NCBI RefSeq assembly: GCF_044324875.1
Contig: NZ_CP172185.1
DNA from: Escherichia coli
GTDB lineage: Bacteria; Pseudomonadota; Gammaproteobacteria; Enterobacterales; Enterobacteriaceae
Direction: 5' to 3' (one strand)
DNA: 64,000 nt
The position numbers were made by a program, and so were the translations under genes. This document shows, one piece after another, positions 2,019 to 32,781 of the stretch; within the stretch, counting starts at the first letter, position 1; each line of letters opens with the position of its first letter. Below the pieces are notes generated by a model. The model saw only the letters and a list, made by a program, of their open reading frames with translations. It searched no databases and had not been told where the DNA came from.

Positions 2019-3111
2019 GGTTGTATTGCTGTGCCGTCCGGGCTTTGAAAAAGAGTGCGCCGCAGAAATTACCGATAAAGCCGGCCAGCGGGAAATTTTC
2101 GGTTTTGCCCGCGTGAAAGAGAATGCGGGTTATGTGATTTATGAATGTTATCAACCTGATGATGGCGATAAGTTAATCCGTGAGCTGCCGTTCAGTTCAT
2201 TAATTTTTGCCCGCCAGTGGTTTGTAGTGGGGGAACTCCTGCAGCATTTGCCGCCAGAAGATCGTATTACTCCCATTGTCGGCATGTTACAGGGCGTAGT
2301 AGAGAAGGGCGGTGAACTGCGTGTTGAAGTTGCCGATACCAACGAAAGCAAAGAGTTGCTGAAATTCTGCCGTAAATTCACCGTGCCGCTACGCGCTGCC
2401 TTGCGCGATGCGGGTGTGCTGGCGAACTATGAAACGCCGAAGCGTCCGGTTGTGCATGTATTCTTTATTGCACCAGGCTGCTGCTATACCGGTTACTCAT
2501 ACAGCAACAATAATTCGCCGTTCTATATGGGCATTCCGCGCCTGAAATTTCCGGCAGATGCGCCGAGTCGTTCCACGCTCAAACTGGAAGAGGCATTTCA
2601 TGTGTTTATTCCTGCGGATGAGTGGGATGAACGCCTGGCGAACGGGATGTGGGCGGTGGATTTAGGCGCTTGCCCAGGCGGCTGGACCTACCAACTGGTG
2701 AAGCGCAACATGTGGGTTTATTCCGTCGACAACGGCCCGATGGCGCAAAGTCTGATGGATACCGGACAGGTGACGTGGCTGCGGGAAGACGGTTTCAAAT
2801 TCCGTCCGACACGCAGCAATATCTCCTGGATGGTATGCGATATGGTTGAAAAACCGGCGAAAGTTGCGGCATTGATGGCGCAGTGGCTGGTTAATGGCTG
2901 GTGCCGTGAAACCATTTTCAACCTCAAACTGCCGATGAAAAAACGCTACGAAGAAGTGTCACACAATCTGGCGTATATTCAGGCACAGCTTGATGAACAT
3001 GGCATAAATGCTCAGATCCAGGCGCGGCAGTTGTATCACGATCGCGAAGAAGTGACGGTGCACGTCCGCCGTATCTGGGCTGCGGTGGGTGGTCGTCGCG
3101 ACGAGCGATAA
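2011..3111 (+). CDS. rlmM: 23S rRNA (cytidine2498-2'-O)-methyltransferase RlmM
   Basis: 366 aa; THUMP-like N-terminus plus SAM-MTase motif [10 protein letters not shown]; overlaps ygdD stop by 8 nt. Confidence 0.9.
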
Positions 3112-29659: not shown

Positions 29660-31894
29660 ATGGTTGCGGTAAGAAGTGCACATATCAATAAGGCTGGTGA
29701 ATTTGATCCGGAAAAATGGATCGCAAGTCTGGGTATTACCAGCCAGAAGTCGTGTGAGTGCTTAGCCGAAACCTGGGCGTATTGTCTGCAACAGACGCAG
29801 GGGCATCCGGATGCCAGTCTGTTATTGTGGCGTGGTGTTGAGATGGTGGAGATCCTCTCGACATTAAGTATGGACATTGACACGCTGCGGGCGGCGCTGC
29901 TGTTCCCTCTGGCGGATGCCAACGTAGTCAGCGAAGATGTGCTGCGTGAGAGCGTCGGTAAGTCGGTCGTTAACCTTATTCACGGCGTGCGTGATATGGC
30001 GGCGATCCGCCAGCTGAAAGCGACGCATACCGATTCTGTTTCCTCCGAACAGGTCGATAACGTTCGCCGGATGTTATTGGCGATGGTCGATGATTTTCGC
30101 TGCGTGGTCATCAAACTGGCAGAGCGTATTGCTCATCTGCGCGAAGTAAAAGACGCGCCGGAAGATGAACGCGTACTGGCGGCAAAAGAGTGCACCAATA
30201 TCTACGCGCCGTTGGCGAACCGTCTTGGGATTGGACAACTGAAATGGGAGCTGGAAGATTACTGCTTCCGTTATCTCCACCCGACCGAATACAAACGCAT
30301 CGCAAAACTGCTGCATGAACGCCGTCTCGACCGCGAACACTATATCGAAGAGTTTGTCGGCCATCTGCGCGCTGAGATGAAAGCTGAAGGCGTTAAAGCT
30401 GAAGTGTATGGTCGTCCGAAACACATCTACAGCATCTGGCGCAAAATGCAGAAAAAGAACCTCGCCTTCGATGAGCTGTTTGATGTGCGTGCGGTACGTA
30501 TTGTCGCCGAGCGTTTACAGGATTGTTATGCCGCACTGGGGATAGTGCACACTCACTATCGCCACCTGCCGGATGAGTTTGACGATTACGTCGCTAACCC
30601 GAAACCAAACGGTTATCAGTCTATTCATACCGTGGTTCTGGGACCAGGTGGCAAAACCGTTGAGATCCAAATCCGCACTAAACAGATGCATGAAGATGCA
30701 GAGTTGGGTGTTGCTGCGCACTGGAAATATAAAGAGGGCGCGGCAGCTGGCGGCGCACGTTCGGGACATGAAGACCGGATTGCCTGGCTGCGTAAACTGA
30801 TTGCGTGGCAGGAAGAGATGGCTGATTCCGGCGAAATGCTCGACGAAGTACGCAGCCAGGTATTTGACGACCGGGTGTATGTCTTTACGCCGAAAGGTGA
30901 TGTCATTGATTTGCCTGCGGGATCAACACCGCTGGACTTCGCTTACCACATCCACAGTGATGTCGGACACCGCTGCATCGGGGCAAAAATTGGCGGGCGC
31001 ATTGTGCCGTTCACCTACCAGCTGCAGATGGGCGACCAGATTGAAATTATCACCCAGAAACAGCCGAACCCCAGCCGTGACTGGTTAAACCCAAACCTCG
31101 GTTACGTCACAACCAGCCGTGGGCGTTCGAAAATTCACGCCTGGTTCCGTAAACAGGACCGTGACAAAAACGTTCTGGCTGGGCGGCAAATCCTTGACGA
31201 CGAGCTGGAACATCTGGGGATCAGCCTGAAAGAAGCAGAAAAACATCTGCTGCCGCGTTACAACTTCAATGATGTCGACGAGTTGCTGGCGGCGATTGGT
31301 GGCGGGGATATCCGTCTCAATCAGATGGTGAACTTCCTGCAATCGCAATTTAATAAGCCGAGTGCCGAAGAGCAGGACGCCGCCGCGCTGAAGCAACTTC
31401 AGCAAAAAAGCTACACGCCGCAAAACCGCAGTAAAGATAACGGTCGTGTGGTGGTTGAAGGTGTCGGTAACCTGATGCACCACATCGCGCGCTGCTGCCA
31501 GCCGATTCCTGGAGATGAGATTGTCGGCTTCATTACCCAGGGACGCGGTATTTCAGTACACCGCGCCGATTGCGAACAACTGGCGGAACTGCGCTCCCAT
31601 GCGCCAGAACGCATTGTTGACGCGGTATGGGGTGAGAGCTACTCCGCCGGATATTCGCTGGTGGTCCGCGTGGTGGCTAATGATCGTAGTGGGTTGTTAC
31701 GTGATATCACGACCATTCTTGCCAACGAGAAGGTGAACGTACTTGGCGTTGCCAGCCGTAGCGACACCAAACAGCAACTGGCGACCATCGACATGACCAT
31801 TGAGATTTACAACCTGCAAGTGCTGGGGCGCGTGCTGGGTAAACTCAACCAGGTGCCGGATGTTATCGACGCGCGTCGGTTGCACGGGAGTTAG
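29660..31894 (+). CDS. relA: GTP pyrophosphokinase RelA ((p)ppGpp synthetase I)
   Basis: 744 aa. Confidence 0.95.
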   Translation: MVAVRSAHINKAGEFDPEKWIASLGITSQKSCECLAETWAYCLQQTQGHPDASLLLWRGVEMVEILSTLSMDIDTLRAALLFPLADANVVSEDVLRESVGKSVVNLIHGVRDMAAIRQLKATHTDSVSSEQVDNVRRMLLAMVDDFRCVVIKLAERIAHLREVKDAPEDERVLAAKECTNIYAPLANRLGIGQLKWELEDYCFRYLHPTEYKRIAKLLHERRLDREHYIEEFVGHLRAEMKAEGVKAEVYGRPKHIYSIWRKMQKKNLAFDELFDVRAVRIVAERLQDCYAALGIVHTHYRHLPDEFDDYVANPKPNGYQSIHTVVLGPGGKTVEIQIRTKQMHEDAELGVAAHWKYKEGAAAGGARSGHEDRIAWLRKLIAWQEEMADSGEMLDEVRSQVFDDRVYVFTPKGDVIDLPAGSTPLDFAYHIHSDVGHRCIGAKIGGRIVPFTYQLQMGDQIEIITQKQPNPSRDWLNPNLGYVTTSRGRSKIHAWFRKQDRDKNVLAGRQILDDELEHLGISLKEAEKHLLPRYNFNDVDELLAAIGGGDIRLNQMVNFLQSQFNKPSAEEQDAAALKQLQQKSYTPQNRSKDNGRVVVEGVGNLMHHIARCCQPIPGDEIVGFITQGRGISVHRADCEQLAELRSHAPERIVDAVWGESYSAGYSLVVRVVANDRSGLLRDITTILANEKVNVLGVASRSDTKQQLATIDMTIEIYNLQVLGRVLGKLNQVPDVIDARRLHGS

Positions 31895-31989
31895 TCTTAC
31901 ATAGCTGGATATGGCGTCAGCCGTATCCAGCGATATCTTTTACTCGAAGGTATTACACCTGACAGACCCGCAATTTTCAGGACAATTCA

Positions 31990-32781
31990 ATGAATCAAAT
32001 CGACCGTTTGCTCACTATTATGCAGCGCCTGCGCGACCCGGAAAACGGCTGCCCGTGGGATAAAGAGCAGACATTTGCCACCATTGCGCCTTACACCCTT
32101 GAAGAAACCTACGAAGTGCTGGACGCCATCGCCCGTGAAGATTTTGACGATCTTCGCGGTGAACTGGGCGATCTGCTATTCCAGGTGGTGTTTTACGCGC
32201 AAATGGCTCAGGAAGAAGGGCGCTTTGACTTTAATGATATTTGCGCTGCTATTAGCGATAAATTAGAGCGTCGCCATCCGCATGTTTTTGCTGACAGTTC
32301 TGCCGAAAACAGTAGTGAAGTGCTTACCCGTTGGGAGCAAATCAAAACCGAAGAGCGCGCGCAGAAAGCGCAGCATTCAGCGCTGGACGATATTCCTCGT
32401 AGTTTACCGGCTTTAATGCGTGCGCAAAAAATCCAGAAACGTTGCGCCAACGTTGGTTTCGACTGGACGACGCTTGGTCCGGTAGTCGATAAAGTCTACG
32501 AAGAGATCGACGAGGTGATGTACGAGGCGCGGCAGGCTGTTATCGACCAGGCTAAACTGGAGGAGGAAATGGGTGACCTGCTGTTTGCCACGGTCAACAT
32601 GGCACGCCATTTAGGGACAAAAGCAGAGATTGCACTACAAAAAGCCAATGAAAAATTCGAGCGCCGTTTTCGCGAAGTGGAGCGTATTGTTGCCGCGCGT
32701 GGACTGGAAATGACAGGTGTTGACCTCGAAACAATGGAAGAAGTCTGGCAACAGGTAAAACGGCAGGAAATTGATCTCTAA
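31990..32781 (+). CDS. mazG: Nucleoside triphosphate pyrophosphohydrolase MazG
   Basis: 263 aa; tandem MazG domains. Confidence 0.9.
   Translation: MNQIDRLLTIMQRLRDPENGCPWDKEQTFATIAPYTLEETYEVLDAIAREDFDDLRGELGDLLFQVVFYAQMAQEEGRFDFNDICAAISDKLERRHPHVFADSSAENSSEVLTRWEQIKTEERAQKAQHSALDDIPRSLPALMRAQKIQKRCANVGFDWTTLGPVVDKVYEEIDEVMYEARQAVIDQAKLEEEMGDLLFATVNMARHLGTKAEIALQKANEKFERRFREVERIVAARGLEMTGVDLETMEEVWQQVKRQEIDL

Follow-up and report, generated by a model that had tools for sequence, protein, structure and literature searches.

An Escherichia coli relA-mazG junction without mazEF is a common form, apparently ancestral, with a REP-like hairpin segment in place of the K-12 cassette

In Escherichia coli K-12 (MG1655), the toxin-antitoxin genes mazE and mazF lie between relA and mazG, in the order relA-mazE-mazF-mazG. 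The 64,000-nucleotide stretch of contig NZ_CP172185.1 analysed here, referred to as the window, carries mazG directly after relA, and a sequence-only reading had concluded that mazEF is missing from exactly the site it occupies in K-12. Does such a junction reflect a mazEF module that was lost, a module that never arrived, or a faulty assembly, and does it say anything about the strain? The two observations from which the question starts were both upheld, as MG1655 has mazEF at this very place, the gap in the window is exactly 95 bp, and tblastn with K-12 MazE and MazF generated no match at E ≤ 1e-3 anywhere in the 64-kb window.

The features of the junction are listed in Table 1. relA ends with a TAG stop codon (31892-31894), and the Shine-Dalgarno sequence of mazG, AGGA (31979-31982), lies 7 nt 5′ of its ATG. 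barA and rlmD are located upstream of relA, and pyrG and eno downstream of mazG, an arrangement usual for E. coli. The 111-aa MazF ORF is too long for a 95-bp gap; as the gap contains neither a MazF toxin ORF nor an upstream MazE with its operator/promoter, the junction does not constitute a mazEF module. The sequence-only reading had described the spacer as a hairpin followed by the mazG ribosome binding site (RBS), and both are present, though the hairpin lies at 31904-31931 and not at 31908-31935. An Rfam scan of 31700-32200 yielded no match at E ≤ 1, and thus no known RNA family in the spacer. A promoter-like match at 31959-31986 scored 9/12 and is no more than chance would give, with 0.5 such matches expected and one found. 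A 50-aa ORF with an ATG start (31911-32063, plus strand) begins within the hairpin and runs out of frame into the start of mazG; it is probably spurious. Across positions 20000-44000 of the window, none of the 5426 complete E. coli genomes matched the 24 kb at more than 99.0% (the best include ECA64 and O17_K12a), so the strain belongs to a lineage with no close relative among complete RefSeq genomes.

Table 1. Features of the relA-mazG junction in the window
Feature	Coordinates	Strand	Basis
relA (GTP diphosphokinase, 744 aa)	29660..31894	+	NCBIfam NF008124 full length, 1676.8 bits; ORF list
relA-mazG spacer, 95 bp, unoccupied junction form	31895..31989	+	sequence; same spacer in 042, CFT073, ST131, ST69
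53-bp segment found only in the empty form	31895..31947	+	BLAST breakpoints, window vs K-12
REP-like hairpin, 12-bp stem, GUCA loop	31904..31931	+	terminator-like scan; folding; REP alignments
Segment common to empty and mazEF forms	31948..31989	+	K-12 homology restarts at 31948; alignment
mazG (nucleoside triphosphate pyrophosphohydrolase, 263 aa)	31990..32781	+	TIGR00444 416.6 bits, NF007113 369.3 bits

The frequency of the empty junction was determined with a 75-nt probe covering the end of relA and the spacer. At a threshold of at least 95% identity, the probe detected the empty form in 1000 of 5426 complete E. coli genomes (approximately 18%), once per genome and always on the chromosome, and 304 of these 1000 matched at 99% identity or more. 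The mazEF cassette of K-12 was found in 4416 of the 5426 genomes (at least 80% coverage), leaving ten that fell in neither count. Carriers of the empty form include CFT073, Nissle 1917, 83972 and O25b:H4-ST131 of phylogroup B2, and 042 and an O15:H18 ST69 strain of phylogroup D. The sequence-only reading had named a mis-join as a possible source of the gap. That an assembly or window mis-join dropped mazEF is so improbable that it can be set aside, since the same junction is present as a single aligned piece in 1000 complete genomes, and in the RefSeq annotation of 042, CFT073, ST131 and ST69, mazG likewise comes next after relA, 95 bp away. Over 8235 bp spanning the junction, a draft contig (GCA_014589615.1, DABSSV010000010.1) also matches the window at 100% identity.

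The mazEF-free strains CFT073, UTI89, ST131, Nissle 1917 and 042 share the gene order, the 95-bp spacer and the hairpin with the window. The window spacer shows zero to three substitutions relative to 042, CFT073, ST131, ST69 and GMF054, and nothing of substance distinguishes the window from these strains; a single spacer position separates it from 042. Lack of mazEF is a frequent polymorphism across phylogroups and not a sign of an unusual lineage, and the proposal that it marks this strain as a distinct lineage is contradicted by the occurrence of the empty junction in 18% of complete genomes, in several phylogroups. Ramisetty and Santhosh in 2016 and Fiedoruk et al. in 2015, both cited in the two papers named below, reportedly described horizontal transfer and a phylogroup-linked distribution of these modules. 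The window junction is real, ordinary, and of a mazEF-free form that has already been described: CFT073 lacks a relA-linked mazF (Bustamante et al. 2020, PMC7232551), and in strains without mazEF, relA and mazG have been termed "undisturbed bicistronic operons" (Fraikin et al. 2020, PMC7167474).

Alignment of the window with K-12 defined how the two forms differ. The flanking genes are approximately 98% identical, and homology continues through the relA stop codon, up to its final base at 31894, and restarts at 31948, so that the final 42 bp before the mazG ATG, including the RBS, are common to both. Between the breakpoints (31894/31895 and 31947/31948), the window has the 53-bp segment with the hairpin, whereas K-12 has a 690-bp cassette composed of a 77-bp promoter/operator region, mazE, mazF and a 29-bp tail. 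The GC content of the cassette is 45.7%, compared with 53.8% for relA and 50.6% for mazG. No significant remnant of mazEF was found on either strand of the 53-bp segment, the best local alignments being matched by 14-17% of shuffles, and direct repeats were looked for at the cassette borders and not seen. Homology of the bases after the hairpin to the 29-bp tail that follows mazF in K-12 was considered and rejected, with 71% of shuffles scoring as high. The difference between the two forms is thus a replacement, rather than a simple insertion or deletion.

This bears on the proposal that mazEF had either not yet arrived or been cleanly lost. A clean deletion from a K-12-like junction in this lineage would account for the absence of mazEF taken alone, but it could not have yielded the window junction, because the 53 bp at 31895-31947 exist only in the empty form and a deletion cannot create them; the same 53 bp are moreover kept in Escherichia sp. 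MOD1-EC7003, and in Citrobacter their orthologues are REP hairpins. We consider such a deletion highly improbable. The suggestion of clean loss is therefore rejected, and that of a module not yet arrived fits the ancestral form of the junction. Of the two outcomes that the sequence-only reading had named for a check of the junction, an ancestral look or deletion scars, the comparisons point to the ancestral one, and the junction is not a deletion scar.

The 53-bp segment is dominated by the hairpin, whose stem of 12 pairs includes seven G-C pairs and one G-U pair. It folds at -23.3 kcal/mol (z = -6.35), and 0 of 200 shuffled sequences fold as well. REP elements of Enterobacteriaceae have the consensus GCC(G/T)GATG...CATC(C/A)GGC, and the hairpin resembles them in being an imperfect palindrome of approximately 28 nt, extragenic, and located just past a stop codon. 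It matches the REP consensus at most positions once two 1-nt gaps are allowed, and none of 500 shuffles scored as high, the consensus being approximate and the head of the hairpin altered. It also aligns column by column with the REP hairpins located directly 3′ of relA in Citrobacter amalonaticus, Citrobacter sp. FP75 and a record labelled B17-3 (see below), and in position it is, like a REP, extragenic, placed after a gene end, and orthologous to REP copies in relatives. It differs from canonical REPs in its drifted head (GCTGGATA...TATCCAGC), in which GCTGGATA departs from GCC(G/T)GATG. The change in the head, GCTGG...CCAGC in place of GCCGG...CCGGC, corresponds to a compensated C>T / G>A pair. 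The hairpin also lacks the flanking GTAG/CTAC, and no second copy with six or fewer mismatches was found in the 64-kb window; canonical REP heads occur at seven other places there.

The scan for terminator-like sites found one site where 0.8 was expected by chance. The 3′ tail of the hairpin is GAUAUCUUUU, and efficient termination is doubtful because the run of four U begins 7 nt past the stem. The hairpin is likely a REP-type 3′-end stabiliser or a leaky terminator.

To determine which form is older, mazG neighbourhoods were collected from 80 GTDB species representatives of Enterobacterales, 79 of which had enough upstream sequence to judge. In 65 of the 79, relA was located less than 200 bp from mazG with no MazE/MazF match. 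mazEF was present at the junction in a single representative, Escherichia sp. E1V33, and in the others the spacer was longer or held other cargo, in every case with no MazE/MazF match. Escherichia sp. MOD1-EC7003 carries the same 95-bp spacer with five substitutions and a nearly identical hairpin, with flanks diverged by 3-4%. The spacers of Citrobacter and Salmonella, 61-130 bp in length, likewise begin with a stable palindrome. Given the short mazEF-free spacers in 65 of 79 representatives and the orthology of the REP hairpin, the empty form with its decayed REP is apparently the ancestral one, and mazEF the later arrival. The mazEF cassette of E1V33 (L004, 2270-3000) differs by 2.2-2.7% from E. 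coli cassettes, whereas its relA and mazG-pyrG flanks are diverged by 5-8%, suggesting that recombination carried the cassette from one Escherichia clade to another; this divergence pattern and the low GC content of the cassette fit a later arrival of mazEF.

The codons that close relA (window 31886-31894) are AGT TAG (Ser-stop) in E1V33 and in all E. coli examined, whichever form of the junction they carry. In MOD1-EC7003, and in most of the Citrobacter and both of the Salmonella representatives examined, they are AAT TAA (Asn-stop).

We hold it very probable that the window carries an unoccupied, ancestral-type relA-mazG junction, that mazEF of K-12 is a foreign 690-bp cassette, and that the two forms have been exchanged by recombination; no observation speaks against this reading. 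In distances calculated over 2 kb on each side of the junction, strains of one phylogroup fall together whichever junction form they carry. B2 contains both forms, and there IMT5155 (mazEF) differs from CFT073 (empty) by 0.2% downstream and 1.2% upstream, and from ST131 (empty) by 0.7% upstream. EC17CM2, which carries mazEF, differs from the window by 1.2% upstream. Homologous recombination through relA and mazG is the simplest explanation for the presence of both forms within phylogroups.

The same exchange could have acted in this lineage on an ancestor that carried mazEF and lost it by homologous recombination with an empty-form donor, which would make the absence in the window secondary. 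The grouping of the flanks by phylogroup, with both forms inside B2, speaks for such a reversion, and the closeness of IMT5155 and CFT073 across forms indicates that switches have occurred. The window is itself a mosaic relative to 042, with no difference over 2100 nt downstream and 1.1% divergence upstream. A reversion would leave no direct trace, however, as replacement and retention would end in identical junctions, and the closest relatives sampled (042 and ST69) are also empty. We regard a secondary loss of this kind as somewhat unlikely.

In the main reading, with relA followed by a stable REP-derived hairpin and then the mazG RBS, relA and mazG form a simple two-gene unit. In an Escherichia ancestor, the mazEF cassette would have replaced the 53-bp hairpin segment, from the base that directly follows the relA stop codon, and both forms would since have coexisted in E. 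coli, swapped by homologous recombination via the conserved flanking genes. In the empty form the hairpin may act as a leaky terminator or 3′-end stabiliser, and mazG would be expressed by read-through from relA and not from the promoter autoregulated by MazE/MazF. The presumed read-through agrees with the published description of relA-mazG as bicistronic (PMC7167474). For K-12, a passage of PMC5120126 that cites Gross et al. 2006 states that mazG is co-transcribed with mazEF.

The relA-mazG site has been described as plastic, with parDE located there in Salmonella spp. (Fraikin et al. 2020, PMC7167474), and further cargo was found among the species representatives. Lelliottia nimipressuralis (L031, 1767-2911) and Trabulsiella guamensis (L033, 1743-2921) carry a two-gene cassette between relA and mazG. 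Its first product is a DUF4225 protein of 272 and 281 aa, respectively (Pfam E = 1e-30 and 8e-28); the second ORF, of 107 aa, has no Pfam match. Three members of the Klebsiella oxytoca group (L029, 2628-2960; L025 and L034, ~100-2961) have a 110-111 aa ORF directly upstream of mazG, again with no Pfam match. In L025 and L034, this ORF is preceded by a fimbrial protein gene (PF00419, tested on L034), relA is not located within 3 kb, and a large ORF before the 110-111 aa ORF was read as a putative fimbrial usher. The same intergenic site is thus filled by unrelated small cassettes such as parDE and the DUF4225 pair, whereas the window has no cargo.

Other arrangements of the junction were also seen. 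Several other genera have expanded, repeat-rich relA-mazG spacers; in Dryocola sp. BD613 (L054, 2632-3001), a 365-bp spacer consists of tandem units, each with a copy of the relA 3′ end (…AAGCGGCTGCACGGCGGA) and a long palindrome. The record CP169086.1 (L003), labelled Enterobacter hormaechei B17-3, has relA and mazG-pyrG flanks that differ by 0.1-0.2% from E. coli K-12, and its junction (2917-3006) carries neither mazEF nor the 95-bp E. coli spacer; relA ends in ...GGCGGCTAA and is followed by a canonical REP in a 69-bp spacer. B17-3 represents a third junction form, or a mislabelled or hybrid record.

The range of cargo raises the idea that the relA-mazG spacer is a preferred landing site for small cassettes (mazEF, parDE, the DUF4225 pair), with the replaced REP-type hairpin perhaps aiding capture. 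No REP sequence was found at the borders of the cassettes in L031, L033 and L029, where ordinary terminator hairpins follow relA, so REP-directed capture gained no support and stays speculation. We consider the landing-site idea quite unlikely; if true, it would bear on how chromosomal toxin-antitoxin modules integrate.

For this strain, the empty junction tells nothing special. For the species, the survey of 5426 complete genomes confirms mazEF to be an accessory insertion that does not belong to a conserved relA operon, and calls for caution in linking MazEF to the stringent response from the gene order of K-12.
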